This document shows positions 12,049-36,254 of a stretch of 45,977 bases of DNA, piece after piece. Source of the stretch: an uncultured bacterium (GTDB lineage: Bacteria; Zixibacteria; MSB-5A5; UBA10806); assembly GCA_965555375.1 (NCBI GenBank), contig CBEWDL010000002.1, positions 1 through 45,977 of the forward strand, given 5' to 3'. Each line of letters starts with the position of its first letter. The stretch's first letter is position 1. Under the pieces are notes generated by a model. It did not search any database and was not told where the DNA came from. It worked only from the letters and a program-made list of their open reading frames with translations. The position numbers were made by a program, and so were the translations under genes.

Positions 12049-12159
12049 GGTAGCCGATCAAGGGAAAGAGTAATCTGGCGGGATGCACAGTTTACATAAT
12101 ACATCTTATAGGATTCTGATGCGGCATATATCTTCATCCTAATATCAGCAAATTACTTA

Positions 12160-14310
12160 CTAAATTATCCAGGGAATCTTATCGGAGCCCGCTTTCGGCA
12201 ATTCAATCCGCAGGGCCTCCGATGGAGGCCAGACCTCCAATAATCTACCCTCCTCCTTGACCTCAAGCCTGAAAGAGATTATTTCCTCCGGTCTTAACCT
12301 GAATTCTATGAGCTCAAGAGAAATTTCTAACAGGTCCTTCAGCTTATAACTAAAGCCATGTATCTCCCTGTCACCGAGATTCATCCTGGCCTGCGAGCCG
12401 GATATGACGAGGCTGCCTTCTCTCGGCTTCAAAAATTCTATTTCAAAGGTAAGCCGACTGAATCTTTCACTATCTACACCGGCAGCCCTGTCAACACGTA
12501 TGTACAGTTTCCCCTGATCGAAGCCGAACCAGATGCCGGATACTACGACCTCGGATCTATGCATGGTTGAGCCGGCCTTTAAGCAGTCGAAAAATCCAGC
12601 TTGTTGCCATTCAAAGTAATGAGTCAACATGCCATCGATGGTGGGAGTTATATATTCAATCGGGACCGCCAGGTATTCAGGTTCGAATCTGGAACGCACA
12701 GGTTCGAAAAGTTCCGGTGGCGGTTCGCGGTCAGTGAGTTTGTAAACATTGGTTAGATGGGAGCGAAACAGGCGATCGAAATCATCGTTATTCGGCCCGA
12801 CGTGATCATCGCCAAACCACCAGCACCAATCGGAACCCTCCGCTATATAAATTTCCCTCCAGGCTCTCTCGAGCTTTTCCTTGTCGAAATCCGGGTTCGA
12901 TTTCTGAAATTCCAGAAGCTCGCCTCTCGCCTTTGAGAGCAGATCCCAGGCTTTATTGTCTTCCCGGTGCCCAATCCAGATACCGAAATTGTGATTGATC
13001 CAGCTGCCTGGATGGAGTCTTTTAAGCTGCGCTGACTCCGGTTTATCGGATAGATACTCGCTGAAGGTCGTCGTCTCTAACCAGTCCGCCGCAGAAATTT
13101 TCGAGTATAATGAGTTTAAAAAATCGTGACCATCGTTAGGATAATATTCCCAGGCGTTTTCGCCGTCGAGGATGACCGATACGATTGGATCTTTAATATT
13201 TTTAGAAATCAGGTTTCTATGAATTGCCTCTAACCTGGTCAAAAAATCATCGGCGGCTCTTTCCGCATCCCACTGTGAATAAACGAACCCGATATTGTCA
13301 GACAGCGCATGATCGCGAAAGAAGATTGATAGCGACGCCCCTTCCTTGCTGAAACAATAACTCCTGTACAGGTCTCCGGACGTTACCAGTCTATCAACTC
13401 CGCCAGTATCAGTCAAGCTGCGGGCTAGAATTTCCTCGTCTGTGGCGATCCACTGGATACCCTCTTTCGAGATCAGGGGGATAATATCCTCGGAGACCGA
13501 GCCCTCTGACGGCCACATACCTGTCGGCCGTTTACCGAAAAGCTCGATGTAAAGGTCGATAGCCATGGTCACCTGTTTCCGCACGTCCTCCGGATGCTGA
13601 AATCTTTTTTGCGGCAACTCCACATCCGGCATGGCAACTTTCGCGATCGATGAATCATATAATAGGGGCATTATGGGATGGAAATAAGGGCTGGTGGAAA
13701 CATCGATCTGCCCCGTTGTCATCATCTCCTTCAACTCCGGGATTATCCTCCCGATTATCTTTCGCTGCTCGGACAGAATTTCCTGCTTCTCCTCTTCGGT
13801 ATACCTCTCCCCTTTTTCGGATAGCTCCAAAAGCCTGCCGCTTTTCTTGAATATCGGATCGATCCATGCCAGGTTGGATAAACATTGCAGATCGCGCCAA
13901 TCGGTCTCCTTCCAACTGTCTAAAGCCCTCCTCCGATCGTTGAATAGCTGTCTATATCTGCGGTTCGGTTGGATCATGTGATCGTAATTAGCCTGAAAAT
14001 GCAGCTCCAGGATTTTTGGTTTATCTTCATCTGTCAGGTCCGACGCCTTTTTTAAACTTAATTCGAGATGCGGATCGGTAGCCACCCCCCTGGCATAGTC
14101 GTCCAATTGCTCCAGCAGCGATGGGACCATATTGAATGTCTGCTTTATGCGCGGAAAGCGACGCAGGATCTCCACCATGTCGAGGTAATCCTTGACGCCG
14201 TGAAGCCTGACCCAGGGCAAATGATAATAGCCCGTCGTGAGATCTTTATAAAAGGGCTGATGCTGATGCCAGAGAAACGCTAATTTCAACACAGGTTTAT
14301 ATGCCTGCAT
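12160..14310 (-). CDS. glycoside hydrolase family 57 protein (alpha-amylase / 4-alpha-glucanotransferase-like)
   Basis: The N-terminal WHQHQPFYKD...LPWVRLHGVKDYLDM pattern is typical of GH57. 716 aa with a long C-terminal extension. Confidence 0.88.
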   Translation of the reverse strand: MQAYKPVLKLAFLWHQHQPFYKDLTTGYYHLPWVRLHGVKDYLDMVEILRRFPRIKQTFNMVPSLLEQLDDYARGVATDPHLELSLKKASDLTDEDKPKILELHFQANYDHMIQPNRRYRQLFNDRRRALDSWKETDWRDLQCLSNLAWIDPIFKKSGRLLELSEKGERYTEEEKQEILSEQRKIIGRIIPELKEMMTTGQIDVSTSPYFHPIMPLLYDSSIAKVAMPDVELPQKRFQHPEDVRKQVTMAIDLYIELFGKRPTGMWPSEGSVSEDIIPLISKEGIQWIATDEEILARSLTDTGGVDRLVTSGDLYRSYCFSKEGASLSIFFRDHALSDNIGFVYSQWDAERAADDFLTRLEAIHRNLISKNIKDPIVSVILDGENAWEYYPNDGHDFLNSLYSKISAADWLETTTFSEYLSDKPESAQLKRLHPGSWINHNFGIWIGHREDNKAWDLLSKARGELLEFQKSNPDFDKEKLERAWREIYIAEGSDWCWWFGDDHVGPNNDDFDRLFRSHLTNVYKLTDREPPPELFEPVRSRFEPEYLAVPIEYITPTIDGMLTHYFEWQQAGFFDCLKAGSTMHRSEVVVSGIWFGFDQGKLYIRVDRAAGVDSERFSRLTFEIEFLKPREGSLVISGSQARMNLGDREIHGFSYKLKDLLEISLELIEFRLRPEEIISFRLEVKEEGRLLEVWPPSEALRIELPKAGSDKIPWII

Positions 14311-14328: not shown

Positions 14329-15000
14329 CTAATAATTGATCTCCGCCAGCGATCGACGCGCTTCTTTGGCCTGCATAGAATTCCCATAAGAACTATCGAT
14401 TTCGCTATAGGCTATTCTTGCCGATGCCGTATCTCCCGCCGCCACGAAACTTACGCCGGCTCTAAGCAGGTTATCGGGCGCCCATAATTCATCCGGGAAT
14501 ATCCTGGCTGCCTCCTGATAAAGCCTCCCGGCCTCAAGCCTGTCGCCATCGATCTCTTTGCAGGCAGCGGCCCCGGCGATCGCGTTCGATAACATCATCC
14601 TATCTTTATCATATCCCGCGATGATCTTGTTATAATAGTCGAGCGCCTCGGTGTAATTCTTCTCCTGAAAATAATAGTTGGCCAATAAAAGGGTCCCCCG
14701 CGCGGCGGGCCTCGTTCCGGAGTAGTTCTCGGCCAGGGCTCTTAAATCGCCGATTCCAGCATCCACCTGGCCCGTATCGAATGCCAGGTGCGCCCTGGCA
14801 AGAAGAGTGGTGGCCTCGTTTTTCTTTCGATCAGCACTCCACATCATAAGCACTATGGCGATAAAAACGACCGCCACCCCCACTCCTCCTATGACAAACG
14901 GCGTCCGATTCTTCTGAATATACTCGCTGGCCTTGAAGGCTGTCGTAACAAGTTTATCTTCTTTGATCTGCTTTTTTGTAATCCTTCTTGCCGGACTCAT
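14329..15000 (-). CDS. membrane-anchored tetratricopeptide repeat protein
   Basis: One N-terminal TM segment (FVIGGVGVAVVFIAIVLMMW) followed by TPR-like A/Y/L repeats. Confidence 0.75.
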   Translation of the reverse strand: MSPARRITKKQIKEDKLVTTAFKASEYIQKNRTPFVIGGVGVAVVFIAIVLMMWSADRKKNEATTLLARAHLAFDTGQVDAGIGDLRALAENYSGTRPAARGTLLLANYYFQEKNYTEALDYYNKIIAGYDKDRMMLSNAIAGAAACKEIDGDRLEAGRLYQEAARIFPDELWAPDNLLRAGVSFVAAGDTASARIAYSEIDSSYGNSMQAKEARRSLAEINY

Positions 15001-16805: not shown

Positions 16806-17108
16806 TTAAATCTGCCGCTTTTCCCTCAAAATAGACGCGTATTCTTCAGCGTCCATTGGGCATTCCAGTAAAAATTGCACATCCTCAAGTTTATCCAGAT
16901 ACAGCCGAATTTTCATTCGTTTCCAAAGAGCTTGAGGATAGGTCTTGTAGTGTGAGCCTCGAGATATTCGGGCCTGAATGTGCGTATGCCATCTATTGTC
17001 ATAGAAATAGCAGTATTTATCGTGCCCGCTTTTCTTTGATTGTTTCCTATATTTAAACCCTTTGCTCTTAAGTGACGCTATAATAGTTGTTCTTTCTATA
17101 TCACTCAT
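16806..17108 (-). CDS. hypothetical protein, weak HicA-like resemblance
   Basis: The third gene of the coupled cassette. The ATG at 17108 overlaps the upstream stop (ATGAGTGA). The ORF track offers a TTG start at 17126. The string SLKSKGFKYRKQ..SGHDKY...RGSH loosely recalls the HicA/YcfA fold. Confidence 0.6.
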   Translation of the reverse strand: MSDIERTTIIASLKSKGFKYRKQSKKSGHDKYCYFYDNRWHTHIQARISRGSHYKTYPQALWKRMKIRLYLDKLEDVQFLLECPMDAEEYASILREKRQI

Positions 17109-17616
17109 TCGATTTGAGTGTAGCAAACGCCATTAAAGTCTTCTTGAACTCTAATGTGCTATTGCCTAACTCTTCTGGAGGACTCTCCACGATGTCTTTG
17201 TAAAAGTCTATGAAAGAAGCATTAAACTCAAGCAGGGCTTTTTCTTCATTCTTCCCAAAACCATAGATGCCGAACCGCTCATTGAAAGCAATAGCATAAC
17301 CTTCTTCAAAGGATATATCGACCCGCAGAGTTACGCCTTTATCAAATAGAAGCTCCATATTGTCATATGTGATTTTGCTAAGATGGCGTGTCATAGAAGC
17401 ATCAACTTCGGACGTTGTATGAACTTCTCCACCGCTCCACGTACAAACGAAATGAAATGAGTGAATAACCATGGGTATTGCGGGAGCAGTCGTTGAAACT
17501 AATTCACGAGGCCAGCGCTTGGTTTTAGGGACGAATTTACCCTCCCCCCTGTCTACGTGGATGCTTGAGCCATAATCATTTTCTAGGATTCGAGTAATCT
17601 CTGATTCCATATCCAT
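17101..17616 (-). CDS. hypothetical protein with a HicB-like C-terminal segment
   Basis: EGYAIAFNERFGIYGFGKNEEKALLEFNASFIDFY fits the HicB/UPF0150 pattern (G-Y-x-A...G-x-G-x-x-x-E-x-A-L...Y). The N-terminal ~100 aa are unassigned. Its start shares a TAATG with the upstream gene. Confidence 0.6.
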   Translation of the reverse strand: MDMESEITRILENDYGSSIHVDRGEGKFVPKTKRWPRELVSTTAPAIPMVIHSFHFVCTWSGGEVHTTSEVDASMTRHLSKITYDNMELLFDKGVTLRVDISFEEGYAIAFNERFGIYGFGKNEEKALLEFNASFIDFYKDIVESPPEELGNSTLEFKKTLMAFATLKSNE

Positions 17617-18835: not shown

Positions 18836-18891
18836 CCGTCCTGTTCCTACATCCCCCTCATTTTTCTGTTCTGGTTGATTATCTTGTTCAT

Positions 18892-18913
18892 CTTCATAGC
18901 CTAAGATTTCCTA
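18892..18913 (-). repeat. 22-bp repeat, copy A (TAGGAAATCTTAGGCTATGAAG on the - strand)
   Basis: It is identical over 22 nt to 24738-24759. It lies 56 nt upstream of the 161-aa gene start. Confidence 0.85.
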
Positions 18914-18946
18914 CTTTTTCTGACTGCTGGTTTTGACCTATTTCTC

Positions 18947-18975
18947 GTTGCCGCTAATGGGATGTTAGCGGAAAC
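18947..18975. repeat. 29-bp palindrome family, site 1
   Basis: GTTGCCGCTAA-TGGGATG-TTAGCGGAAAC. The arms pair at 10 of 11 positions around a 7-bp spacer. Confidence 0.8.
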
Positions 18976-19015: not shown

Positions 19016-20356
19016 CTACCATAGCCCCGGCTCCCAACGGATTCGATCCTCGATAAAGTGAAATTTCACCGCGCACTCGGCACCCTTGCGCTGCTTTATC
19101 AATAATTCTGCGTTGACTCCGGTCGGAGGATTATGCCGGGGCGGTTCATTATTCTCATCGCTTTCCCCTGGATAGACCCTGTGAATGAATATGATCGTAT
19201 CTGCGTCTTGCTCCAGTGCCCCGGAATCCCGTAAATCCGAAAGCTTCGGTACGGCCCTTTCGCCCCTTTTTTCGATATCGCGGCTCATCTGCGATATCGC
19301 GAGAATCGGGATATTAAGTTCCCCGGCGAGAACCTTCAGGGCGCGGGAGATCATCCTGACTTCTTCATTGCGGGAACTGATATTCCTCCCAGCACTCATC
19401 AATTGCGAATAGTCGATTATCAAAAACTCGATTTTATGGTTCAGACGCATCCGCGTCGCGATTGATTTCAGCTTTGTGATATTGACATCAGAATAATCGC
19501 AGATATAAAGCGGTTTCGATTCAAACTTATCAATGGCCTCATCAATTTTCGCCCAGCCTATATCACTTAGGGTTTCATTCGGCGTTTTGGGAATCGGTGC
19601 GTCAGCCCAATAGGAGACAATCCGCTTAGCATTCTCCAAGGCTTTCATCTCCATGCTTATGAAGCCAACAGTGATGGATTTCTCGATGAGGTTTTCGGCG
19701 ATGTTCAGGGCGAAAGCCGATTTCCCGGTTTTGGGGCGGGCCGCCAGAATGATTAATTCCCCGGCATGGAGTCCACCAATGCTATTATCCAGATCCGAAT
19801 ATCCTGTCATCAAACCTGTTCTTCTTCCAGCTTTCAAGCTTTCGATCTCTTCTTTCATTTCCGGAGCGATATCGGCCAGAGAAACAATGCTCTGCTTTCC
19901 GTTCGAAGACATCAGGCGCAATAGAGCCTTTTCGCATGATTCGATTATTTCATCTGTCGATCGCTCAGTACCGGCACAGGTGGAAACGATCTCTTTTCCA
20001 ATCGATTCCAGTTTCCTTCTGGTAGACGCCTCGATTATCAGTCTGGCGTGGTCGGCGGTGTGTCGATAGCTAACAACCGATTGGACAATATCCAAAAGAT
20101 AACGCATCCCCCCAATATCATCGTAGGCACCCATTTTCTTGAGCTCATCGGGAACGGTGATGAGATCTACGGCCTTAGATGAGCCATAAAGGGTTTCCAC
20201 GGCGGTGAAGATTTTTCTGTGTCGTGCTGAGTAGAAATCGTCCGGCTGCAGCATTTCCAGGACTATATGCCGAGCCTCCTCATTCTACAGGATTGCTCCC
20301 AAAACTTCTTGCTCGGCCTCTATCGCTTGTCGCCTGTCGAAGTCTGCCTTACTCAT
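19016..20356 (-). pseudogene. dnaB: replicative DNA helicase DnaB with an in-frame TAG at codon 24
   Basis: The ATG at 20356 overlaps the loader-gene stop (ATGA) and encodes MSKADFDRRQAIEAEQEVLGAIL. A TAG follows at 20285-20287, then NEEARHIVLEMLQPDDFY continues in the same frame into the 412-aa ORF. That ORF has Walker A GKSAFALN and a RecA-like core. Confidence 0.8.
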
Positions 20357-21060
20357 TTCGACATCCTGTAGTCTTTTCCATCGAGCTTAATGATCAAAGC
20401 ATCGTGCAATAGGCGTGAAATCAGCCTGTCGCCCAGCTTCAGAGCAAGATCCCGATAACTAAAATTTGTGGTTATGATCGTTGGCAGGCATCGATTATAG
20501 CGTCTGTTAACAATCAGGTAAAACACCTCACGAACCCATTCCGTCGCTTTCTCCACACCTAAATCGTCGATTATGAGATACGGAACGCGTGAATGTTTGT
20601 CGGTTATCTCTGCTGTCGCAATCTCGCAATCGGGATCAAAAGTCTCTTTGATCTGGTATAGAAGATCTACTCCGGCTATGAATAACACTCGTTTCAACGA
20701 ATCCCGGATGATTCGCTTTGCCAACGATACAGCCAGGTGTGTTTTGCCGACTCCGACCTTGCCGGATATGAATACATTCCTCGATTCGTCAGCCTTTTGG
20801 CTGTAATCGATAAGATCCCTTACTGCCTTCTCTTGCGAACTTGTATGCGTTTTATAATTATCAAACTCCATTGCGAGTAGCCGCTTCTCAAAGCTGCAAT
20901 CTCGAATTAGATCCCGAATGAGCCTGTTTTTCGAACATTCCGTGCAATACTCCGGTGGCTCCCGCCAAACCTTGTGTTGCTCATCGAAAACTGCGGCGAT
21001 AACGCTTCTGCAACCTTTGCACTTGCGATCCTGATATGGATTTGACTCAGATTTGGTCAT
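20353..21060 (-). CDS. DnaC/IstB-like AAA+ helicase loader with an N-terminal Cys4 cluster
   Basis: Walker A GKVGVGKTHL, Walker B LIIDDLG, and CKGC...CTEC near the N-terminus. Confidence 0.85.
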   Translation of the reverse strand: MTKSESNPYQDRKCKGCRSVIAAVFDEQHKVWREPPEYCTECSKNRLIRDLIRDCSFEKRLLAMEFDNYKTHTSSQEKAVRDLIDYSQKADESRNVFISGKVGVGKTHLAVSLAKRIIRDSLKRVLFIAGVDLLYQIKETFDPDCEIATAEITDKHSRVPYLIIDDLGVEKATEWVREVFYLIVNRRYNRCLPTIITTNFSYRDLALKLGDRLISRLLHDALIIKLDGKDYRMSK

Positions 21061-21886
21061 ATTTATCTAAATCTCCATCGTCGCCAGCAGCCTTGATTTC
21101 TTTCTGGTTTAGGTAACCTTCGAATTTTTCTGAGTACAGGGTTGCCGGTTTGAGATTTCCCACCATCTTAGGATTATTCCCCCATTCCCGAATCTTCTTT
21201 GAATTCACTATTAAAAAATTTTCAAGACAGAATCCCTCTTTGAATCTGGCCTTGATAAGCCTTTGGGTTAATTTCGCAGTTGGTGAGAATCGGGTCCCCA
21301 GCTTTTTATTCAGATCGTCGATAATTGCTTTGAAGGGAATTCCATTGTCGGAACGGACTGCATGTTTTTTGCCCGACAATAATCCTTCGTTAGAAGAATT
21401 AATTAATGGAATAGGAATAGGAATAGGAGAAGGGGCATTGCGGATTTCCGATTTCCGCATTGCGACCCGCATGCCGTCCGCATTGCGACCCGCATTAACT
21501 CCTTGTCCTCGTTTCTTTTGCCAGCGTGCTTTCGCAGCCTTTTGAGCAGCTTCTTTTCTTTCGGGTGCAAAATAAGCAAACGGATTGTGATCTTTCCAGT
21601 CGTGTAATGCCAAATCTCCGTTTTCAAGCTTGTCAAGAAGTCTCAGTTCAATCAGAAAATTAATTAGATCAGTACATTGCTCAGTTGTTCCGTCCGGGAA
21701 ATTCATGGCGATCGCAATATCGTCCATGTCCATATTGGTTAGAATCCCCTTGGGCCTGTTCTCCGCCGTCCAACCCCAGAGACGAAATAACCGGATGAAT
21801 CCTTCCTCGTAGCCTTTTTTGCGGATCAGCTTTTTTATTTTCGGGTGATCGAGGACTCCCGTATTTATCCTGAAATCGGCGGTCAT
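21047..21886 (-). CDS. phage replisome organizer / replication initiation protein (Phg_2220_C-type C-terminus)
   Basis: The C-terminus IIDDLNKKLGTRFSP....LIKARFKEGFCLENFLIVNSKKIREW......LKPATLYSEKFEGYLNQ matches the conserved phage C-terminal domain, as I remember it. Confidence 0.8.
   Translation of the reverse strand: MTADFRINTGVLDHPKIKKLIRKKGYEEGFIRLFRLWGWTAENRPKGILTNMDMDDIAIAMNFPDGTTEQCTDLINFLIELRLLDKLENGDLALHDWKDHNPFAYFAPERKEAAQKAAKARWQKKRGQGVNAGRNADGMRVAMRKSEIRNAPSPIPIPIPLINSSNEGLLSGKKHAVRSDNGIPFKAIIDDLNKKLGTRFSPTAKLTQRLIKARFKEGFCLENFLIVNSKKIREWGNNPKMVGNLKPATLYSEKFEGYLNQKEIKAAGDDGDLDKYDQI
21405..21497. repeat. iteron-like repeat cluster inside the organizer gene (candidate origin)
   Basis: (GGAATA)x3 at 21408-21425 and GATTTCC x2 at 21443-21456. 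A 19-bp perfect direct repeat TCCGCATTGCGACCCGCAT occurs at 21454-21472 and 21477-21495. A third GCATTGCG is at 21435. Confidence 0.6.
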
Positions 21887-22191: not shown

Positions 22192-22434
22192 CTAATTTCT
22201 TAGAACCTCGTTAAGGCTCCCTTTTAATTTTCTTATGGATGATTGATAGTTGCCCGGTTCTACTCTGGCCTGGCCATTCAGAAACTTGATTGGGTCGTCG
22301 CCAATCTCAGCCCTACTGAAGACAAAAACCCCCTTATGCCCCTCGAGGTCTATGCGAATAAGCCTATGGCCGGATGTTAGTAGGAATGCAGATAGTGCCA
22401 GGTCGGTGGATCTGAATTCGCCGTTGTCTTTCAT
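22192..22434 (-). CDS. DUF5659-like small phage protein
   Basis: FRSTDLALSAFLLTSGHRLIRID..GHKGVFVF....DPIKFLNGQARV......IRKLKGSL fits the DUF5659 pattern. GGAGATGATTAG precedes the ATG. Confidence 0.7.
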   Translation of the reverse strand: MKDNGEFRSTDLALSAFLLTSGHRLIRIDLEGHKGVFVFSRAEIGDDPIKFLNGQARVEPGNYQSSIRKLKGSLNEVLRN

Positions 22435-22565
22435 CTAATCATCTCCAATTTCAGGAGCCGGGCCAGCCCCCGCCATCCCGGCTCCAGGCGATCGCTAAAA
22501 TTCTCACCCAAAGATCAGGGGCTGTCACAACTAACAGTTTTTCGGGGTAATGATAGGGCAGGCAG

Positions 22566-22614
22566 TTAAGCGTAAGGAATTGAATCTTTTTTAGGTCTAT
22601 TCCATTACGCTTAA
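22566..22614. repeat. 15/16-bp imperfect inverted repeat in a 297-nt non-coding gap
   Basis: TTAAGCGTAAGGAAT, an 18-nt spacer, then ATTCCATTACGCTTAA, with one bulged base. Confidence 0.7.
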
Positions 22615-22731
22615 TACATTGGCCCCGAGCGCAGAAATAAACGGGCTGTTATCATTGCGGTAAGGCCAGTTACGGGCATCATTCCGCCAACTTATTTTAT
22701 AAGGGGAAATAAAACTTTTCTTTGTAATATA

Positions 22732-24714
22732 TTACGTTTTCGAGGCGTAATGATTACCGGCACAACGGCATTGAAATAAAATTTTTGAATTTTCGTCACT
22801 ATCTGGGACAATTGGTTTAATTTCAGTCTCCAAAAATTTCTGCAAATACTTATTCAAATTACGCCGTTGTTCTCTATACGTCAATTTAAAGGGAGCATTC
22901 GGCCCATTTGGCCTGCCAGTTTTCCTTGCAATATTCAATAGAATCGTCCATTCCTTCCGAGGTTTTATCTCTTTTTTATCCCGCCTATTATTAAACCCTG
23001 CTTCTCGATAGGTTCGGGTTTCCAGTTCATCCATACCCGGAAGATATAACGATATTGATTCTTCAGATATAAAAGCCCACTCCAAGTCCTCAATCTTCCT
23101 ATCGCAGAGCGGAAATGGTTTAAATTCAATATTTTCCTCATCCTCTAAAACGTCTGCACGTTCTTCGCGTGGCTTAACCAAGTCTCCTTTTTCGCCCTGA
23201 AGTTCATCAAGATGTTTCTTTACCATGCGCGGCAAAACAAGCACGCTTTTAATGAATTCTGAAATATAATTGCTTAGCTCCCCACAGCAAGATTCGAGAT
23301 TTAAGTTGCTGTATTCTGGGGGCCCGCCAATCCAATCCTGATTCACTTTTACCGGCCTGAATTTAAACACTTCATGGAATCTGTCTTCAAATTCGTTTTT
23401 CAATTCGATAAGCAAATCGAAGAGGGCAATATAATATTCCCCCCCTTCTCCTATGAAGTGTGGGTTGACATCAAATACTGGGTATTTTGTGTGTTCCCGG
23501 GATATTCCTGCAATGCTAAATATCAAGTAAGAGGCGCCATTGCCACGCATATCGATTCCAAGAAGACTCGATTGATTAGCAATCGTGGATAACGCCTGGA
23601 TCGGCTCAATAATATACTTTTCAAGCAAAATAAAACGAAGATCACTGCCATATTTCTTGAGGTATTGAATCCTCTCCGATAGATATTCTACTTTATATTC
23701 TAATATTTTTTGAAATTCCTTGATAGTTCCATTTCGATGCGCGCTCCACTGAGAATCAAGCTCTTTGCCCGACATTGTTTTTTGGTGTTCTTGAATACTC
23801 CTTTTCCTGAAATCCTCGACATTTTGGTAGGGTTTGTAGGAAAATCTCTCGTTGAGTCTAAATGCCTTAACGTATATTTCACTTTTATATATTTTCGCTA
23901 TTTCGTTATGAGTATCTTGTACAAAACTCTCCGCCCCGGAATTGATTTCCCCGTATAAATTGTCGTTAATGAGCTCAGAATTTCGTAATTTCTCAATCTG
24001 GGCGATCAACTTGTCGCCTCTATTTTTGCTTTTACTTAACTTCTCTATCTTGTCATCAACTGAAGCTTTCAGAGAATTCTGATCTGTGGAGCTGTTTTCT
24101 GACATCGGGGTTGATTTGTTCTCTATCTCCTTTTGGCCCTCAGGTTCCAGAGTGGCGGGTTGAACGTCGCCAAACGCCTCAAGTTCACGGCGGAAAACAT
24201 CCGGTATCTTCGGGCAATTGCGTTCGATGCAAAGAGCAGCCTTGCGGTCGATCTGCTTTATCTTAAGTCCCATTTCATCATATTCCGATTCTGTAAGAGA
24301 TTCATCGGAATTCACGTCATGAAGCATAGGGTGTTTCATGTTGAAAAATAGGTTTACCATCTCATCACGCGCCTTAAGTCCCCCACCTTGTTCTGACTCT
24401 TTTTTTTCTCCATAATAATATGCAATGGGGGGGTCGGTGGCATTGATGGCATTTTTGAATTTCTCAGGTTTACTCTCAAAAACGGGAGCGCTCAATACAG
24501 ATATATACTGGTCTCTGAATGCAAACATGCTATCTACAAATGTCTTTCTTTTATGCCCATGAGGATCATAAGGATCGGGAGCCAGCGGCTTGCCGCGTTT
24601 GCCGCTATCCCCGACGCGATACCATTCTATGATTGAATATATGAATCCGACTCTTTCACTGACTAATTTAGCGAGATAATGCTTCGATTTTCTCGTTACT
24701 TGGGGGCTGTTCAT
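22732..24714 (-). CDS. orphan 660-aa protein of unknown function (low-GC cargo)
   Basis: An uninterrupted ORF preceded by AAGGAGATATTTAGCCCCC-ATG. I recognise no family motif. The central region is Lys/Glu/Ser-rich. Confidence 0.85.
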   Translation of the reverse strand: MNSPQVTRKSKHYLAKLVSERVGFIYSIIEWYRVGDSGKRGKPLAPDPYDPHGHKRKTFVDSMFAFRDQYISVLSAPVFESKPEKFKNAINATDPPIAYYYGEKKESEQGGGLKARDEMVNLFFNMKHPMLHDVNSDESLTESEYDEMGLKIKQIDRKAALCIERNCPKIPDVFRRELEAFGDVQPATLEPEGQKEIENKSTPMSENSSTDQNSLKASVDDKIEKLSKSKNRGDKLIAQIEKLRNSELINDNLYGEINSGAESFVQDTHNEIAKIYKSEIYVKAFRLNERFSYKPYQNVEDFRKRSIQEHQKTMSGKELDSQWSAHRNGTIKEFQKILEYKVEYLSERIQYLKKYGSDLRFILLEKYIIEPIQALSTIANQSSLLGIDMRGNGASYLIFSIAGISREHTKYPVFDVNPHFIGEGGEYYIALFDLLIELKNEFEDRFHEVFKFRPVKVNQDWIGGPPEYSNLNLESCCGELSNYISEFIKSVLVLPRMVKKHLDELQGEKGDLVKPREERADVLEDEENIEFKPFPLCDRKIEDLEWAFISEESISLYLPGMDELETRTYREAGFNNRRDKKEIKPRKEWTILLNIARKTGRPNGPNAPFKLTYREQRRNLNKYLQKFLETEIKPIVPDSDENSKILFQCRCAGNHYASKT

Positions 24715-24737
24715 GGGGGCTAAATATCTCCTTACAA

Positions 24738-24759
24738 CTTCATAGCCTAAGATTTCCTA
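24738..24759 (-). repeat. 22-bp repeat, copy B
   Basis: It is identical to 18892-18913 and ends 23 nt upstream of the 660-aa gene ATG. Confidence 0.85.
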
Positions 24760-24829
24760 TTCTTCACCTTGCCAAAATCATGCCCTTTTTTTGAGTCCAG
24801 ACAATTTCGTTTATACCCGTTTTCACCCG

Positions 24830-25051
24830 TTATTTCCCCTTCCGGACATGCTCCTTCAGTTGGTCAATAATGTCCTCGACTGAGTGTACCTTCTTGGTGT
24901 TGATGCGGGCAGATTTGAGGAGGTGGACAAGATTCACGAGCAACTCGGTTTTAGTGATTTTTACGCCGCTATCCAAACGAATCCGCGCCGGTAATTCTTC
25001 AAGAACGTTATTGATTTCGTCAGGTAAAAGAAATGTAGCCTTAACAGCCAT
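24830..25051 (-). CDS. small DNA-binding protein, ribbon-helix-helix-like (73 aa)
   Basis: The N-terminal beta-strand-like KATFLLPDEI followed by helices (NNVLEEL...KTELLVNLVHLL) fits an RHH pattern. GGGGGATTAACGC precedes the ATG. Confidence 0.55.
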   Translation of the reverse strand: MAVKATFLLPDEINNVLEELPARIRLDSGVKITKTELLVNLVHLLKSARINTKKVHSVEDIIDQLKEHVRKGK

Positions 25052-25074
25052 GCGTTAATCCCCCTAAAATTACG

Positions 25075-25103
25075 ATTGCCGATAATGCGTAATTAACGGA
25101 AAT
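25075..25103. repeat. 29-bp palindrome family, site 2
   Basis: ATTGCCGATAA-TGCGTAA-TTAACGGAAAT. The arms pair at 9 of 11 positions. It lies 24-52 nt upstream of the RHH-like gene start and overlaps a second inverted repeat, AATTACG-N13-CGTAATT (25068-25094). Confidence 0.75.
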
Positions 25104-26080: not shown

Positions 26081-28369
26081 TTATGCGGCTTTGCTGAACG
26101 CAGCCTTTCTCCTCCTCACAACCGCAACGGTCCCAGCGGCCAACAACAACAACCCCATTATCAGCATGCCCCATTCGGAGAGAGTGGGGATCTCCATGGT
26201 TTCGCATTCTATGATTTTAACTGATACAGCATCAATACCGGCCTCGACAACTGATCCCTCACCGAGGTCGGAAGCCTCGAAACGGATTCTAACCTGGCTT
26301 GTTGGAATTATGAAATTGGCAGCCGCGAAAGACTGTTCTGTCCAGCCCGACGTAGTATGGGGACCATATGTTTCAACTAATGTCCAGTTAGCCCCATCGT
26401 CGTTCGAGATATGCACGTTGAAGACATCACTGTTAGGGGCATTACAAGCATTGTTTGTGTACCAAAGGGCATAGTCAATAATGGCATCACTTCCGCTCAG
26501 ATCAAAGTCAGGGGATATAAGCCATGTATAACCGTCATCCACGTCTGAATTATCGTCGGCATTATCTGTAATAAAGCAGTAACCTGAACCATCGAAATCA
26601 GCGGGGGGGTCGCCCCTATCGCCGCCGCCCGCCGGTATACCTCGTTCCCATTGGCCGTCGCTACAACTATTCTCAACGACCCAACCCTGATCGGTGTTGA
26701 AATCGTCCTCGAATATGGAAACGAGTTCATCAGCGCTTAAGGCCGAATAGCTGACATCCGGAGCAGTGGGGGGATCAGTAACAAGTGTGCCCTCTTCAGT
26801 CTCCGCACTTACATAGAACGATACCTCCACGCCACATTCCAGAGCAGGGAAGACAGCGTCGTAAACATTAGGTGCTACAATCTCCATCGGAATAGTCGTG
26901 AAATCCCCCCCGCTGCTGTAGTGTAGAATTCCTGTGCCTGGTTGAGGATTCGATGCCCCGGGAATAACCTCAACGCGGAATGATGTCCCGCCAGCGGGTG
27001 CAATCAGGTCCGGCAAACCCGCCGGATAGTTAAATTCAATAAGCAGCGGTGACCATAATCCAGCCACGGTCGCCAGAGTTGCTATGGCTCCTTTTACAAC
27101 TTCAGTCGCATAATCGAGATCAAGGTTTGTTATAACATCGTTAGTAGTATGATACCATGGATACCAATCCGGCGCATCCCATAGCTGGGCATCGATTGAA
27201 AAAGGGGCGGGAAAGCCATAATACGAGAAATAATAATGGTCGCTGCCATATTGCGGACCTATTGTATTGACACGTATTGAATAGGCGCTTGAGTAATCAT
27301 CCGTCAGGAAAGCGAGAAGATCTGCAAGAGCCACTTCAGCCAGGAAGGTTTGATCACTGTAAATATTGGTGTCCCACCCAAATCCCCCAGCGTAGGCCAC
27401 CATATCGAAATTCAACACTCCGGCAACGTTACGGTTGTTGAGAAAACAGAATTCAGCGTAAGCCTCTGAGCCGTACAGACCCTGCTCCTCACCGGAGACG
27501 AGAACAAACTCGATGGTGCAATTAAAATCGTACTGGCTTAAAACCCGTGCCGCTTCCACAACGCATGCTGAACCGGAGCCGTTATCTTCAGCTCCAGGGG
27601 CGGAATACTCAGGATTCTCTGAAGTCGCATCTATGTGCCCGATGATTATATATATCGAGTCAGGATAGACCGCGCCCACTTTTCTGCCGATGGCGTCATA
27701 CCAGGTCTCATCATAGTAGGTATATGGAAAAAGTTCAGTTTCGAATCCCAGGTCTGTGAACGTGCTGATACCCCACAACTCGGCCGCCCGGCACGAGTCC
27801 ATATATGAGTAGCGGGTCACAAAATCCTGCAACCTTTGAACATATGCCGTGTATTCCGCCTGGCTCACATGGCTTACAATCTCCTCAATCTCGGGATCGG
27901 TCAGAAGGTTAAACGACGGTTTGACCGGCTTTCCCTCCAGCCTCGGCTTGGCCCTGAAAGAAATATGGGTTAGCCCCTTCATCAATAGAGTTGATTGCGA
28001 ATCAAGTATCGTTTCCGTCATTGCTATGGCCTCACCATCTCCGTAATAGACGACATCGATGCCAGCGGCAAGCCTTTCGATATCCTGACTGCTTATCTGG
28101 AAAAGGAAATACTCACGATTCTCCTCACGTTTGCCTATGTTTTCAATAGCATAGCCTTCAACCTTAAGATTTCTTAATCCTGCAGGTGTTGTTCCTACAA
28201 GAACGCCACTTTTCATAATTGCATAGACGTTGACTTCTTCCAACGCAACGACAGCCCCCACATCCGCCGATCCGTCCATGACAATGTATAGATCCTCAGC
28301 AGGAGCAACCGAGAAACTGGTGAAAATTGCCCAAATCAACACCAACATGCCTTTGAAGCTAATGAACAT
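26081..28369 (-). CDS. secreted M28 family metallopeptidase with an IPTL-CTERM-type sorting tag
   Basis: Signal peptide, then GHIDATS, GAEDNGSGSA and SGEEQGLYGS (M28 metal ligands). The C-terminus is IPTLSEWGMLIMGLLLLAAGTVAVVRRRK. Confidence 0.85.
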   Translation of the reverse strand: MFISFKGMLVLIWAIFTSFSVAPAEDLYIVMDGSADVGAVVALEEVNVYAIMKSGVLVGTTPAGLRNLKVEGYAIENIGKREENREYFLFQISSQDIERLAAGIDVVYYGDGEAIAMTETILDSQSTLLMKGLTHISFRAKPRLEGKPVKPSFNLLTDPEIEEIVSHVSQAEYTAYVQRLQDFVTRYSYMDSCRAAELWGISTFTDLGFETELFPYTYYDETWYDAIGRKVGAVYPDSIYIIIGHIDATSENPEYSAPGAEDNGSGSACVVEAARVLSQYDFNCTIEFVLVSGEEQGLYGSEAYAEFCFLNNRNVAGVLNFDMVAYAGGFGWDTNIYSDQTFLAEVALADLLAFLTDDYSSAYSIRVNTIGPQYGSDHYYFSYYGFPAPFSIDAQLWDAPDWYPWYHTTNDVITNLDLDYATEVVKGAIATLATVAGLWSPLLIEFNYPAGLPDLIAPAGGTSFRVEVIPGASNPQPGTGILHYSSGGDFTTIPMEIVAPNVYDAVFPALECGVEVSFYVSAETEEGTLVTDPPTAPDVSYSALSADELVSIFEDDFNTDQGWVVENSCSDGQWERGIPAGGGDRGDPPADFDGSGYCFITDNADDNSDVDDGYTWLISPDFDLSGSDAIIDYALWYTNNACNAPNSDVFNVHISNDDGANWTLVETYGPHTTSGWTEQSFAAANFIIPTSQVRIRFEASDLGEGSVVEAGIDAVSVKIIECETMEIPTLSEWGMLIMGLLLLAAGTVAVVRRRKAAFSKAA

Positions 28370-28765: not shown

Positions 28766-30391
28766 TTAGATGCTTCTGTCTAAGGCAATCTTCCTCCTCC
28801 TCACAACCGCAACCGTCCCGATAGCCAACAGCAGCAAGGCCAGCACGATCATGCCCCATTCGGAGAGAGTGGGGATCTCCTGAATTTCACATGCATCATC
28901 AATTCCGTTCTCGTTGCTGTCTCCGAGACACTCGGTTCCGGCACCCAACCATTCATGACCGGCCTCAATGCAATCCTCCTCGGTTATTTCCTGGCAGGCA
29001 CCCTCGGCTGAGCAACATGCCCCGGTGGAGGACAGCCTGGCGGAAAAAACATCCTGGTTGCCGTTTCTGGTGTCGGTCCAGACCATCTGAACCTCCCCCT
29101 GCCAGGCGGATAGACCGATATACTCCCCTATCAAGCCCGCGAGACGGGCATCGCTGGGGTTCGATGATACCGTGGTAATTCTTTCGTTTACCGACCACGT
29201 ATCGCCGCCGTCGGTAGATTTCGTGTAATAAAGATCGAAAAGCCAATTATTCTGGTCCAGACGTCTATCGTAAAAGATGGCATGGATTACGCCTGTTTCG
29301 TCAATTGCTATCCAGGGATGAAACTGATCGGCGCCATTATGTTCCGGATCATCGTTGATCCTTATGGGCTCTGACCATGTGGCCCCGTTGTCTTCGGATT
29401 TCATAAAGAAGATATCCATATCGGTAACGTTCTCGTCCATAAAGGCTAAATAGAGATTGCCCGTATATGGCGATAAAGAACTGACGTCAGAGGTCAGGGC
29501 AGGATAGGGAAAAACCAGGATGCCGCCGTTGATTTCACCCGACGAGGCGTTGGTTTCGGTAATTACCTGGTCATTTCCAAAGGTCATTCCCTGATCGAAG
29601 GAAACATCCATCAAAATCCCGCGGGTCGGATAATACTGGAACCAGGCCACAAACACCTCACCCGATACGCCAACCGCCGGAACCGACCACTGAACGCCCT
29701 CGTCGTCCGATACGGAAACCGGATCCGAATAGGTTTCTCCGCCATCGGTGGAGGATACAAGCAGGATCGTGGTACTAAAAAACCTTGTCCAGCTAATGTA
29801 TATATTGCCGTTGGTGGGACCGCTGGTTCTATCGAGGGTTATCCATTGCTTGTCCTCAAAGACTCCTTCGACTGAATCAATAGCGATGACGGGCTCCGAC
29901 CAGCTCATCCCGCCGTCGGTTGATTTCTGTACATAGATCCCGGACGGCTCGTCAAACGTTCCCTCATACGCCAACGTGCAGGCGAAATAATTGCCGTCAT
30001 CGTCTACAGTCAGCACCGGATCAGAAACCCAAGGACGATAGGGAACATCCAGCAGGGCATCGTACCAGGTCTGGCCGCCATCGAAAGTATATCCGGATGC
30101 CACCTGACGGTAACCGAGACGGAAATCGCGCCAGACGGCGACAGCGTTAGCCGTATTGGTGGGATTGATGCAAACCATCTCTTCATTCTGCAGCTGAGTT
30201 GTATTGTCGCTGTTTACCTGGATATTGTCCACATCGAGGATAACCGGGGGGACATAGGGTGCATCCGAGATTGGATACTCCAGAGGCGATAACGGAAATG
30301 GTTCGGAGTGGTCAATATCGCCTGCCCGGATATTACTTTGCAGCAAACAGACTATTGTGGCAAAAATAGAAAATATTAATTTTCTCCGCAT
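28766..30391 (-). CDS. BNR/Asp-box repeat (sialidase-fold) protein with an IPTL-CTERM-type sorting tag
   Basis: Signal peptide and Asp-boxes STDGGMSWS, STDGGETYS, SEDNGATWS and STDGGDTWS. The C-terminus is IPTLSEWGMIVLALLLLAIGTVAVVRRRK. Confidence 0.85.
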   Translation of the reverse strand: MRRKLIFSIFATIVCLLQSNIRAGDIDHSEPFPLSPLEYPISDAPYVPPVILDVDNIQVNSDNTTQLQNEEMVCINPTNTANAVAVWRDFRLGYRQVASGYTFDGGQTWYDALLDVPYRPWVSDPVLTVDDDGNYFACTLAYEGTFDEPSGIYVQKSTDGGMSWSEPVIAIDSVEGVFEDKQWITLDRTSGPTNGNIYISWTRFFSTTILLVSSTDGGETYSDPVSVSDDEGVQWSVPAVGVSGEVFVAWFQYYPTRGILMDVSFDQGMTFGNDQVITETNASSGEINGGILVFPYPALTSDVSSLSPYTGNLYLAFMDENVTDMDIFFMKSEDNGATWSEPIRINDDPEHNGADQFHPWIAIDETGVIHAIFYDRRLDQNNWLFDLYYTKSTDGGDTWSVNERITTVSSNPSDARLAGLIGEYIGLSAWQGEVQMVWTDTRNGNQDVFSARLSSTGACCSAEGACQEITEEDCIEAGHEWLGAGTECLGDSNENGIDDACEIQEIPTLSEWGMIVLALLLLAIGTVAVVRRRKIALDRSI

Positions 30392-31835: not shown

Positions 31836-33599
31836 TCATTTCTGATTCAGACTCTTCTTGAAAGTATGATAGGGGATCGGTTGCTGCTCAACGCCGAATA
31901 TGTCAAGGGCATTTCCTCGTTTCCCTCCGTCGGTGGTTTGATTCTGCGATGAGAATCCATTACTGCCGTAATACTCAGAGGTTCTGCAGGGCCATAGCGG
32001 CAATCCGGATGCAGAAAAATCCTCAGCCGTATGTCGTTCCTGTCGCCCCCGTTCCCCATAGGTATTTTCCAAAAGCTGAAGTACATATTTGCCGCGTTCG
32101 TGCAATGCCTGACTTCTCTGATCGACCTGTTCTCTCATGCGGCGAGCAAAACCCTTGAGCCTTACCTGATCGACAGGATCGGTTATCTTCACAAAATCAT
32201 ATATCTGACAGAGACAAGCATAGGTATCAAGATTCGTTTCCTTGATAAAATTTCGGGCTGATGCCCGCAGACTTTGAGTCAGAAGCTCTGGATGGAAGCG
32301 GCGTAATAGTTGAAAACAGAAATCAACCTGCATATTGAAGTAATGCAGGCCGAAGTCGCTGAAATTGCGCTCGAAAAAGGCATAGTTGGCTATCTTGTGA
32401 AAAGCCTCGGAGTAGGGATCTTTGAGCCTGTAATCATGCCCAAAATAATCTCCCAGAAGCCTCCCCTCGGCTTTCAGTTTGTTCTCCAGCCCGGTTCCTG
32501 TATGAACCTCCGCGCGGCAGAAATTAAACGGATTTTCGATATGTTGTTCAATGAACCGCAGGTTGATGAGGATATCATCCAGTATGGTATCCGGTTCGAA
32601 CATCAGAAGGTTGAAAGCGACATGTACATCGAAAGAGTTGAGAATCTCAAGAGAATTGAGAATCTGTTCATAGCTGCATTTCCGGTTCAGATTTCGCAGT
32701 CCTCGCTCGGAAGCGTTCTCCACACCCAGGAATACGCGAAACAGACCGAGATCATCAAGAACCTCCACCGACTCTCGCGTTATGCTGTCGGGACGCGCCT
32801 TGATTGCTATCGCCATTTTATCCACGCCCGCCCGTCTCAGGCCCTCTCTCAATTCCTTAAAGCGGCTAAGCGCTATGTCCGGTTTGGGATGAAAGAAGTT
32901 ATCATCCTGAAAGTTGAATACGCGAACGTCGTAATCAAAATAAAGCTCTTTCATCTCAGCAATGATATTATCAATACTTCGCAGCCTGAATTTCCTGCCG
33001 CCGCCTCGTTCATACCATGCGTTGATACTGCAAAAGGCGCAGTTACGCCAACATCCCCGACCGGAAAGAATGCTGGCAATCGGCTTGTCGAAATAATCAT
33101 GAAATGAAGTCCGCTTGGGAAATGGCAGCAGGTCGAGCTTTTCGGGATTGCTGATGGATGGATTTGTGGCAATTTGGCCATCAGAATCGCGAAAACATAA
33201 TCCCGGTATTTCCGAGATGTTGTCAATATTCTCCGCCAGCTTACATATCAACTCTTCGCCCTCGCCAAGCCCTATTGAGTCGAACACGGGATAATCCTTG
33301 AGAAGTTGTTCGCCATTGAACGAGGCAAACGGTCCCCCTGCAATAATATGGTTTCTGTAGTTATCATCACGAAGCGCCTTGGCGAGATCGATAAACTCCA
33401 TGGCGCGGGAAGTAAAAACCATCGAAAGGCCTACTATTGCCGGTGAGGTTTCTCTTACATGCTTTACTGCTTCAGGGATATCATTTTGATTGTTGTATGA
33501 AATTATGTCTACCTGATGACCTTTGACCTCAAGGGCTGATGCCATATAACGAAGACCAAGATTTTCTTCCAGTTCCGCGCCTATAAGTGCAATGTTCAT
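31836..33599 (-). CDS. B12-binding domain-containing radical SAM protein
   Basis: An N-terminal cobalamin-binding-like Rossmann segment (IALIGAELEENLGLRYMASALEVKGHQV...IVGLSMVF) followed by the CWRNCAFC (CX3CX2C) cluster. 587 aa. Confidence 0.88.
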   Translation of the reverse strand: MNIALIGAELEENLGLRYMASALEVKGHQVDIISYNNQNDIPEAVKHVRETSPAIVGLSMVFTSRAMEFIDLAKALRDDNYRNHIIAGGPFASFNGEQLLKDYPVFDSIGLGEGEELICKLAENIDNISEIPGLCFRDSDGQIATNPSISNPEKLDLLPFPKRTSFHDYFDKPIASILSGRGCWRNCAFCSINAWYERGGGRKFRLRSIDNIIAEMKELYFDYDVRVFNFQDDNFFHPKPDIALSRFKELREGLRRAGVDKMAIAIKARPDSITRESVEVLDDLGLFRVFLGVENASERGLRNLNRKCSYEQILNSLEILNSFDVHVAFNLLMFEPDTILDDILINLRFIEQHIENPFNFCRAEVHTGTGLENKLKAEGRLLGDYFGHDYRLKDPYSEAFHKIANYAFFERNFSDFGLHYFNMQVDFCFQLLRRFHPELLTQSLRASARNFIKETNLDTYACLCQIYDFVKITDPVDQVRLKGFARRMREQVDQRSQALHERGKYVLQLLENTYGERGRQERHTAEDFSASGLPLWPCRTSEYYGSNGFSSQNQTTDGGKRGNALDIFGVEQQPIPYHTFKKSLNQK

Positions 33600-35096: not shown

Positions 35097-36125
35097 ATGG
35101 TTTCGCTTTTTTCAGAAAGACGGTTTATGGTGGCTGAACTATAGATATAACGGTGAAAGGTATCGTGTTTCAACCGGGACTCGAAATGAGAATCTCGCTG
35201 AAAAGAAGCGGCAAGAGTTTGAGGTCATGCTTTTCAAAGGTATTCGCCCAACCGAAGAAAACCCAAGAAGCAAAAGGACTACAATTTTCGATATATTCTG
35301 CCGGTTCTTAATTCACTCTGAAAAATCTAAGGCCAAAACCACCTGGAAAACTGAAAGAGTATTTCTTAAATTCTGGCAGGAGTTTTTCTCCCGAAAGGGA
35401 ATAAAATATGCCGAGCAGATCAACCATACCGTGATAACTGATTTCCAGATAGAATCCGATATTGGTCCAAGGGGTTTCAACAATGCTTTGACATTGCTAA
35501 GAACCGTGTTCAATAGGGCGATTGATTGGGGAATGCTTGACAAAAATCCTACTCATGGATTCAAGAAAATCAAGATCCCCAAAAAGTTGAAATACTATAC
35601 AGATGATGAACTTGAAAAGTTGTTGTCCGCAGCATCGCCCCGCCAACAAACGATCATCGCGCTCGGTGCTTTTGCAGGTCTTAGAAATGCCGAAATGGTA
35701 AACCTAAGATGGCGCGATATTGATTTTCAAAACAGAATCCTTGAAGTCAGATCGGACGATGAGGTCACCCCAAAAGGCAAACGTCCTCGCTCTATACCAA
35801 TGCACGACCGGCTGATACAGACACTGATGGCATATAAGAGCAATGATACCAACCTAAATGTATTTCCGAGAAATGACTGTCGAGGACCAAAATGTGGCAT
35901 AAATAGCCCGTCTAATGAGTTCAGAGTACTACTACGCCAGGTCGGATTAAAAGGAAGCCACCATACCCTCAGGCATACTTTTGGAACCAGGCTGGTTAAA
36001 AATGGTGTGCCTTTGCCTGTTGTGCAAGCACTCTTGGGTCATGCCGACATTGAATCCCCACCATGATTTATGTACATCTGGCACCTGGGCAATTCAGGGA
36101 TGCGATAAATCAACTGTCACCATAG
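35097..36125 (+). pseudogene. int: tyrosine recombinase/integrase with two homopolymer frameshifts
   Basis: AAGGAG lies 12 nt before the ATG at 35097. The frame changes in the T6 run at 35107-35112, continuing as QKDGLWWLNYRYNGERYRVSTG.... The main ORF 35227-36066 has RNAEMVNLRW and HTLRHTFGTRL...LLGHADIE. After the C4 run at 36056-36059 the catalytic-Tyr segment TMIYVHL is in another frame, ending at 36125. Confidence 0.8.
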
Positions 36126-36254
36126 TGTCACCAAAATCCGCCATATTTAAGTATATCTATGCTAATCTATGCATTCCAGGCGATGTAGGATTTCCCTGCG
36201 CAAAAACCCTATATTTCAACCAATTAACTCAAAAATAAGGGGATATAAAAACAC

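Follow-up and report, generated by a model that had tools for sequence, protein, structure and literature searches.

In the Staphylococcus aureus pathogenicity islands (SaPIs), the C-terminal winged-helix domain of the replication protein Rep reads 6-12 hexanucleotide iterons, which are located directly 3' of the rep gene around an AT-rich tract (PMC9371898). This work concerns a locus in contig CBEWDL010000002.1 of an uncultured bacterium of the Zixibacteria, a complete contig of 45,977 bp that was analyzed at its full length and is referred to here as the window. Within the window, at about 16.8-25.1 kb, lies an element that carries, both on the (-) strand, a small gene (24830..25051), which encodes a basic protein of 73 aa with an isoelectric point (pI) of 9.5, and a large gene (22732..24714), whose open reading frame (ORF) translates into a protein of 660 aa. 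A previous reading of this DNA, made from the sequence only, had regarded the two genes as a low-GC cargo pair and as a candidate for an undescribed defense or exclusion module. Our analysis places them differently: the small-large pair is a fixed backbone module of a rare family of integrating elements and not accessory cargo, and the large gene, a hypervariable cassette, is swapped rapidly between near-identical flanks. Since the arrangement is like that of SaPI Rep, we lean towards the large protein as an element-specific DNA-recognition factor that would head the replication block, either by recognizing an origin or by binding operators, a tentative reading to which we would give somewhat less than an even chance.

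Position of the pair in the element backbone

All eight other contigs that contain a homolog of the small protein, i.e., the contigs of two homologs of the large protein (P0002 and P0003) and six contigs read for five looked-up small-protein homologs, have the same gene order, in which an integrase gene is followed by the small gene and then by a large gene whose product has no Pfam domain. In these contigs, the integrase has about 325 aa and the large protein 427-873 aa. A gene for a DUF5659 protein and then a replication module follow the large gene in all six contigs that are long enough, and in the window a DUF5659 protein of 80 aa, identified with Pfam, is likewise encoded next after the large gene (22192..22434, (-) strand). 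A literature search for DUF5659 found no paper. The replication modules are of various types, with DnaB, D5_N/DUF5906, PrimPol-PriCT-D5_N, a replisome organiser or, in contig L002, AAA_25. Farther on, where the contig reaches, there are genes for a protein of 161-181 aa and for a small regulator, which is annotated as HTH_17 in L002, in the P0022 contig, and in the window. The proposal of a cargo pair is contradicted by this synteny of integrase, small gene, and large gene, as well as by the cis-elements that the pair has in common with another backbone operon.

The element of L002, a contig of another metagenome, occupies the chromosomal site of the window element, beside genes for FadL-like, TPR, and GH57 proteins, and its DUF5659 gene is split (12837-14408 of L002) by an insertion of the IS3 family with HTH_Tnp_1 and rve ORFs at 13035-14220. 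The accession prefixes of L002 and L010 are cited in studies of deep-sea sediment metagenomes. Homology of the window to its close relatives begins at position 25103, which corresponds to 19 nt after the stop codon of their integrase, and no integrase remnant was detected beside the small gene by tblastn; therefore, the window copy has lost the integrase and the cargo end. The earlier observation that the large gene is intact in an element with a broken dnaB gene was correct, and the lost integrase can be added to it. The dnaB gene (19016-20356, (-) strand), whose original ATG at 20356 overlaps the stop codon of the DnaC-like gene (ATGA), contains a single in-frame TAG at 20285-20287 after codon 23 (MSKADFDRRQAIEAEQEVLGAIL*NEEAR...), which leaves a restart product of 412 aa. 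This TAG may represent a true nonsense mutation or may have arisen in the assembly.

Recognizable defense genes are present in the relatives, and they sit beyond the integrase, on the other side from the pair. They encode Type IIG restriction-modification, a GajB-like UvrD helicase, DpdB/DndB-SLFN, Type I restriction-modification with GmrSD, and TIR/REase/PLD-SNF2. None of the four large proteins compared with PADLOC (from L008, L010, L012, and L002) had a match at E<=1e-3, whereas their upstream neighbors matched REase_MTase_IIG, GajB, and DpdB; for the pair of the window, there was no PADLOC match at E<=1. These results do not favor the pair as a defense module. It had been suggested that homologs should be checked for a small partner and for a mobile or defense context, and indeed the small partner is alongside in all eight contigs and the elements are mobile and carry defense genes, but the defense slot is located elsewhere. 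Together, these observations define a rare family of integrative replicating elements in marine-sediment metagenomes, with interchangeable defense systems beside the integrase. They are also relevant to the mining of defense genes, since low GC content, orphan status, and hypervariability here appear to mark the specificity gene of the element itself, with the true defense slot at another position.

Variability and architecture of the large gene

Large proteins of the family share pairwise identities of 20-27%, except for those of the window and L004 (39%) and for one C-terminal domain, called type B, in L002 and L012 (57%). The genes on either side are much more alike. Between L010 and L012, the identities are 67% for the integrase, 95% for the small protein, 22% for the large protein, and 90% for the DUF5659 protein; between L008 and L010, they are 92, 89, 24, and 53%, respectively. 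A gene with 22% identity between flanks with 90-95% identity is a clear case of cassette exchange. At the DNA level, homology between elements spans the small gene and the leader and stops within about five codons of the large-gene start. It resumes at the DUF5659 leader in the comparisons of L010 with L012 and of the window with L002, in the latter at 22471, and it is regained only at the leader of the gene for the 161-aa protein when the window is compared with L008, L010, and L012. The variable cassette reaches about 260 nt beyond the stop codon of the large gene (about 22472-22731).

The composition of the cassette is also distinct, as every large gene of the family is below its locus in GC content. 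In the window, the last two thirds of the gene, which comprise the core and the C-terminal part, have a fraction of 0.39 and the first 609 nt have one of 0.45, compared with 0.483 for the whole window, in agreement with the low GC content estimated earlier by hand counts; the small gene has 0.45. The previously given sizes of both ORFs, their (-) orientation, and their spacer of 115 nt were confirmed, as was the good Shine-Dalgarno sequence of the large gene, AAGGAG, located 12 nt ahead of its ATG.

The relationship between the two genes bears on the possibility that they are a toxin-antitoxin or abortive-infection pair, in which the small protein, resembling ribbon-helix-helix (RHH) proteins, would be both antitoxin and autorepressor and the large protein would be the toxin. 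Such pairs would have a small gene for a DNA-binding(-like) protein first, a larger protein second, and a palindrome upstream, as is the case here, and similar genes are found at the far end of the relatives, e.g., SocA_Panacea in L008. We regard this explanation as highly improbable, because the identities of 88-95% for the small protein, whose C-terminal tail is conserved throughout, and of 21-24% for the large protein are the opposite of antitoxin-toxin co-variation, and because neither a toxin family match nor a catalytic motif was found. In addition, the same palindrome precedes an unrelated operon.

The extreme divergence between near-identical flanks and the low GC content in every element could also be explained by helper-phage interference or anti-phage exclusion, in which a fast-evolving non-enzymatic protein would bind a phage protein, block or sense infection, and be retained after decay of the element. 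The large family would then be a new class of hypervariable, non-enzymatic factor that lets a satellite-like island detect an infecting phage or stop it. The core would coevolve antagonistically with a phage protein, the swappable C-terminal domain would couple this event to the island DNA, and the host would have domesticated the window copy once the integrase was lost; this copy would also have gained a new N-terminal module of 203 residues. The known interference proteins of satellites are non-enzymatic products of backbone genes, the element family carries defense systems, and the large gene has remained intact despite the lost integrase and the stop codon in dnaB. Nevertheless, this explanation seems to us unlikely. 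No tested member had a PADLOC or PHROG match, the position of the gene is fixed in a backbone for replication and regulation with the defense cargo in another hotspot upstream of the integrase, and the repeat array 3' of the gene and the swappable, mostly basic C-terminal domains point to DNA recognition; moreover, the hosts are uncultured.

As judged from sequence comparisons, the large protein is a near-orphan outside any described family. No match at curated thresholds was found for either the large or the small protein in Pfam, PHROGs, PADLOC, NCBIfam, and the PDB sequences, and a word-indexed search of 5.8 billion proteins returned no match to the large protein. An exhaustive HMMER pass over 1.84 billion representative proteins gave five matches, one of which is a fragment of 272 aa of the large protein of the window itself. 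The others are P0002 (544 aa, 41% identity across residues 209-619, E 1.6e-73), P0003 (873 aa, residues 319-506, E 3.8e-8), and P0004 and P0005, which cover residues about 520-652 only; a Pfam scan of the matches, including P0002-P0005, identified no domain in any of them. A word-indexed search with the large-protein profile recovered the same fragment and P0005 and nothing else, back-translated scans with the large protein found nothing in genome, viral, and metagenome collections, and an exact contig look-up of the protein gave no record. In agreement with the earlier failure to assign a family, this is a new family of backbone proteins, with no relative in any curated library and with about ten members among 15 billion proteins.

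Three regions can be distinguished in the protein. Residues 204-506 (23197..24105, (-) strand) form a helical core of ~300 aa that is found family-wide, at identities of only 21-27%, since a hidden Markov model (HMM) of the core, built from six relatives with the window protein left out, matches these residues with an E value of 2.8e-49, its first position falling on M204. Residues 524-654 (22753..23145, (-) strand) constitute a basic C-terminal domain with a pI of 9.2, called type A, that was delimited by alignment and has, in an alignment-based AlphaFold model, two helices between two groups of three strands. It is carried by the proteins of the window, L004, and L014, and also by two unrelated mobile elements, in which its gene is next to genes for PrimPol and a serine recombinase (L005) or to genes for AlpA and HTH_17 proteins (L006, the source of P0005). 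The type B domain of L002 and L012 extends across 220 aa, and L008 has a third type, so that at least three unrelated C-terminal domains occur in the family and are exchanged between its members. The C-terminal domains are mostly basic, with pI values of 8-10, but that of L012 (type B) is acidic (pI 4.9). Pfam and PDB profile searches with the type A domain were empty. If the C-terminal domains do bind the adjacent repeats, type A would represent a new DNA-recognition domain common to several kinds of mobile elements.

Residues 1-203 (24106..24714, (-) strand) are an N-terminal extension that is present only in the window; the N-terminal region had been estimated at about 170 aa, which proved too short. 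The extension is absent from all relatives. The extension opens with the usual first codons of the family, MNSPQ, and has a GC fraction of 0.45, and no homolog of it was detected among the 1.84 billion representatives. Before M204, there is a degenerate, vestigial copy of the leader, AAGGAGAT..CCCCGATG..AACAGCTCC. The extension is probably a foreign coding segment that was recombined into the 5' end of the gene and fused in frame, and translation might also begin at M204 to give a shorter product. An origin of the extension as a partial duplication of the core was rejected (score 2.5 bits). It could be argued from the vestigial second leader and start before M204, from the degraded state of the element, and from the absence of the extension in every other family member that the gene is a decaying chimera that no longer functions, in which a recombination accident joined foreign sequence to a canonical gene. 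This is scarcely credible, as the ORF has 660 stop-free codons in DNA of 39-45% GC, the extension has coding-type base periodicity and no stop codons in its frame compared with 11 and 20 in the two other forward frames, and neither the core nor the C-terminal domain is truncated when compared with the family profile.

The predicted structure gave no indication of an enzyme. With an alignment of six sequences, AlphaFold modeled the protein at a moderate mean predicted local distance difference test (pLDDT) of 61, with an all-helical core that reaches 60-80 in parts, whereas the single-sequence model was unusable (pLDDT 33.7). A Foldseek search of the model against PDB and BFVD gave no match at E<=1e-3; the best ones, with E values of 0.15-0.23, were generic helical bundles. 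The predicted fold, like the sequence searches, led to no known family. The family alignment contains no invariant polar residue in the core, and no P-loop or recognized Rep domain was found in the large proteins by Pfam scans. This is consistent with the sequence-only reading, in which no Walker A motif and no helicase, reverse transcriptase, methylase, nuclease, or capsid signature had been seen, since we found no enzyme signature and no conserved catalytic motif.

Two weak strings that had been pointed out do not survive even in the closest homolog at 41% identity. PVFDV-x22-IELK, considered PD-(D/E)xK-like, is replaced by PDIRI...TSLK in P0002 and is unconserved in the family alignment, and no nuclease match was found in Pfam or PADLOC. 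RSIQEH, considered an Rx4H string, is replaced by YSLREY in P0002, at a place where the alignment has gaps and little conservation. For want of conservation, both a PD-(D/E)xK nuclease and a HEPN ribonuclease (Rx4-6H) were rejected. A similarity of the type A domain to the OmpR/PhoB winged helix (Trans_reg_C) was likewise not supported, as hhalign against six OmpR-family C-terminal domains gave a P value of 0.25 and a probability of 0.2%.

Repeats, upstream elements, and the small protein

Short repeats directly 3' of the large ORF were found in L010, L002, L012, L008, and L004. In L010, GCAACA is present six times in both orientations around a tract of 73% AT (shuffle fraction 0.003). CCAGAA is present six times in L002 and four times in L012, in both orientations beside DNA of 70-80% AT (shuffle fraction 0-0.013), L008 has four copies of TCACAC and a direct repeat of 29 nt (shuffle fraction 0.013), and L004 has an exact direct repeat of 15 nt. 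In L006, the unrelated element with a gene for a type A domain, a repeat of 17 nt is present 3-4 times. L002 and L012 have both the type B domain and the CCAGAA region in common, with 72% nucleotide identity over 873 nt, and their replication proteins differ, being AAA_25 in L002 and organiser-like in L012; therefore, the repeats are tied to the large protein and not to the helicase. L004, whose large protein is the closest relative of that of the window, also has the replication module most similar to that of the window (organiser 47% identical). In the window, the intergenic region 3' of the large gene (22435..22731, (-) strand) is strongly folded (fold z-score -3.2) and contains a perfect 10-bp inverted repeat, TTAAGCGTAA/TTACGCTTAA, at 22566-22575 and 22605-22614 (also written TTAAGCGTAATGG...CCTTACGCTTAA).

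Several observations weigh against the large protein as a DNA-recognition factor for these repeats. The repeats of the window are not enriched (shuffle fraction 0.57), and in L014 only one imperfect direct repeat of 16 nt, 81% identical, was found, which is not enriched either (shuffle fraction 0.62). The co-inheritance of the type B domain and CCAGAA could be plain linkage of neighbors. No DNA-binding fold was recognized, as the Foldseek search and the OmpR/PhoB profile comparison were not significant, with a model of pLDDT 61 only. The palindrome and the TAGG motif, which are the two conserved elements upstream of the genes, do not co-vary with the large protein. Finally, the origin could be located in the replisome-organiser gene (21047-21886, (-) strand), making a second initiator unnecessary. 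The part of this gene that encodes the organiser linker contains an exact 19-nt direct repeat, TCCGCATTGCGACCCGCAT, in two copies with a period of 23 nt (21454-21495), which might serve as an intragenic origin of the kind found with the organisers of SPP1 or of the lambda type.

The position of the repeats, between the large gene and the next operon, would also be suitable for the operators of a master repressor and sensor similar to Stl of the SaPIs, which would bind before the replication operon and be released by a phage protein through the variable core. This explanation overlaps with the one that we favor in that DNA is bound, and differs in the outcome, which would be control of transcription and not origin firing. 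The strongly structured intergenic region (z -3.2) could insulate the gene from the operon that follows, hypervariability is expected of determinants of immunity or specificity, and by keeping a repressor the host would be immune to related elements that arrive later. We consider a repressor of this type decidedly unlikely, given that the protein has no helix-turn-helix (HTH) or other recognized repressor domain, that the large gene is co-directional with its presumed targets, whereas Stl and cI are transcribed divergently, and that AT-rich tracts flanked by oppositely oriented hexamers resemble origins more than operators.

A GC-rich hairpin, GGAGCCGGG...CCCGGCTCC, is located at 22454-22485 on the (-) strand, just before the DUF5659 start, in the conserved DUF5659 leader. 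It is kept between elements, with 85-88% identity between L010 (about 12040-12120) and L014 (about 4480-4570), and it is probably not a simple terminator because it has no T-run. A scan of the region for sigma-70 promoters and terminators gave results not above those for shuffles, and an Rfam scan of 16-26 kb found no family.

Upstream of the small gene, there is an imperfect palindrome of 27 nt, TTTCCGTTAAT-TACGC-ATTATCGGCAA (25076..25102, (-) strand), which is perfect in L008, L010, and L012 (TTTCCGATAAT-N5-ATTATCGGAAA). It is a candidate operator/promoter region of the small-large operon, and the homology to related elements begins directly beside it. Upstream of the large gene, there is a leader motif, TAGG-N6-TAGGCTATGAAG (24735..24764, (-) strand), which is kept before the large gene in L008, L010, and L012. 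Both elements had been described as private to the respective genes. The palindrome and the repeat do exist, but each has a second copy, at 18948-18974 for the palindrome and at 18889-18918 for the TAGG motif, both on the (-) strand upstream of the genes for the 161-aa protein, which has no family, and the HTH_17 protein. For the TAGG motif, the repeat is exact over 20 nt and agrees in 27 of 30 nt, with a chance expectation of 0, and the motif also precedes the gene for the 161-aa homolog in L008 and L010. There, around 14700-14800, it co-occurs with the palindrome TTTCCG(A/C)TAA..TTA(T/G)CGG(A/C)AA upstream of the gene for the 161-181-aa protein. Therefore, these elements define a small backbone regulon and are not private to the pair. 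They stay the same whichever type of large protein is present and so are not the sites that it targets; the small protein or the HTH_17 protein would be the likelier binder.

The small protein might be a ribbon-helix-helix regulator. A profile search identified 24 homologs, of which the closest four are 88-90% identical to it and those in the P0002 and P0003 contigs are 52-68% identical; back-translated scans with the profile found the L002 contig again and nothing else. The description as RHH-like found no support from HMMs. In Pfam scans at E<=10 of the window protein and 23 members, no RHH family appeared, and the best Pfam E values (about 0.008-0.03) were insignificant, and a PDB profile search gave no RHH chain (best E 0.3). 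An hhalign comparison with a hand-made alignment of eight RHH proteins gave a weak match, in which KETFLIP and helix A are in register over 20 columns only (P 0.0015, probability 17%). Similar to RHH regulators such as CopG, Arc, Mnt, and omega, the small protein is basic and shows the sequence pattern KxTFxIP followed by two putative helices joined by a G-x-K-I-T-K-T turn, and its gene is preceded by a palindrome, to which binding is putative. Unlike them, it matches no RHH HMM, and its conserved C-terminal tail of 25 residues, in which NTKK..SV.D.I.Q.KEH.RK is nearly invariant, has no RHH counterpart. As a putative conserved DNA-binding regulator, it would probably act on the palindrome before its own operon and before the operon of the 161-aa and HTH_17 proteins.

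Other features of the window were noted. At the far end of the element, two overlapping genes (16806-17616, (-) strand) encode proteins of 171 aa and 106 aa with no significant family; the 106-aa product resembles a HicA-type toxin by eye, L008 has SocA_Panacea at the equivalent end, so that a slot for toxin-antitoxin genes may exist here. Another tyrosine integrase, a distant relative (35227-36066, (+) strand; Phage_integrase, E 3.5e-24), adjoins the 3' end of tRNA-Sec (36254-36348, (-) strand), which suggests another integrated island to its left. Host genes at 26081-28369 and 28766-30391 on the (-) strand encode two secreted proteins, an M28 peptidase and a protein with BNR repeats, both ending in an IPTL-CTERM sorting signal, which may help in taxonomic placement, and a gene for a B12-binding radical SAM protein is found at 31836-33599.

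Comparison with described systems

In the model that we tentatively prefer, the two genes would head the backbone of a decayed integrative, self-replicating element. The large protein would be non-enzymatic, with a helical core that probably serves oligomerization or contact with a partner, and its basic C-terminal domain would bind the short repeats directly 3' of its own gene, before the block of DUF5659 and helicase/primase genes. The large gene and the repeats would thereby form a specificity cassette for origin recognition or for operator control of replication, which is swapped between near-identical elements. What was observed directly is the conserved gene order, where the cassette begins and ends, the swapping of domains, the repeats, and the lack of catalytic motifs; that the protein binds DNA, which site it targets, and how it affects replication are inferred.

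Similarities to the P4-like and other phage satellites (PMC9122126, PMC9618062, PMC6092414) are found at the level of the whole element, which is small and integrative and has a tyrosine integrase, a primase/helicase module, a regulator of the AlpA/HTH_17 type, and a variable slot for defense genes beside the integrase. In contrast to the satellites, no gene for capsid redirection or packaging was recognized in these elements, and no helper phage is known. Furthermore, the small protein, the large protein, the DUF5659 protein, and the 161-aa protein are without counterparts in P4, the phage-inducible chromosomal islands (PICIs), and the PICI-like elements (PLEs).

Specificity cassettes of mobile elements are known as a kind, and, judging from the sequence searches, it is the protein family building the cassette here that is undescribed. 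In the immunity and replication modules of lambdoid phages (cI and its operators, O and ori) and in the case of SaPI Stl, a divergent specificity gene is likewise recombined between conserved flanks and adjoins its cognate DNA sites, which in the elements described here are putative, and Stl-like proteins are also helical and non-enzymatic. The large protein differs from these in having no HTH domain and no known inducer, and its gene is co-directional with all of its neighbors and not divergent.

With SaPI Rep (PMC9371898), the elements have in common an integrase-bearing island near a primase/helicase, a specificity protein that is swapped between similar islands, and, in the relatives, hexamers in both orientations directly 3' of the ORF around an AT-rich tract. 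The C-terminal domain sets the DNA specificity in SaPI Rep, and the same is proposed for the large protein. However, no sequence or fold similarity between the two was found, the repeats are weak in the window copy, and the large protein has no helicase/ATPase or Rep domain. The helicases here are encoded by separate genes of varying type, i.e., DnaB, D5_N, AAA_25, or an organiser with DnaC and DnaB. Therefore, it would be appropriate to say that the large protein may work like an initiator of the SaPI Rep type without being a member of that class. If this is correct, these elements would represent a design of initiator or regulator in which specificity and helicase are separate parts, each of which can be swapped.

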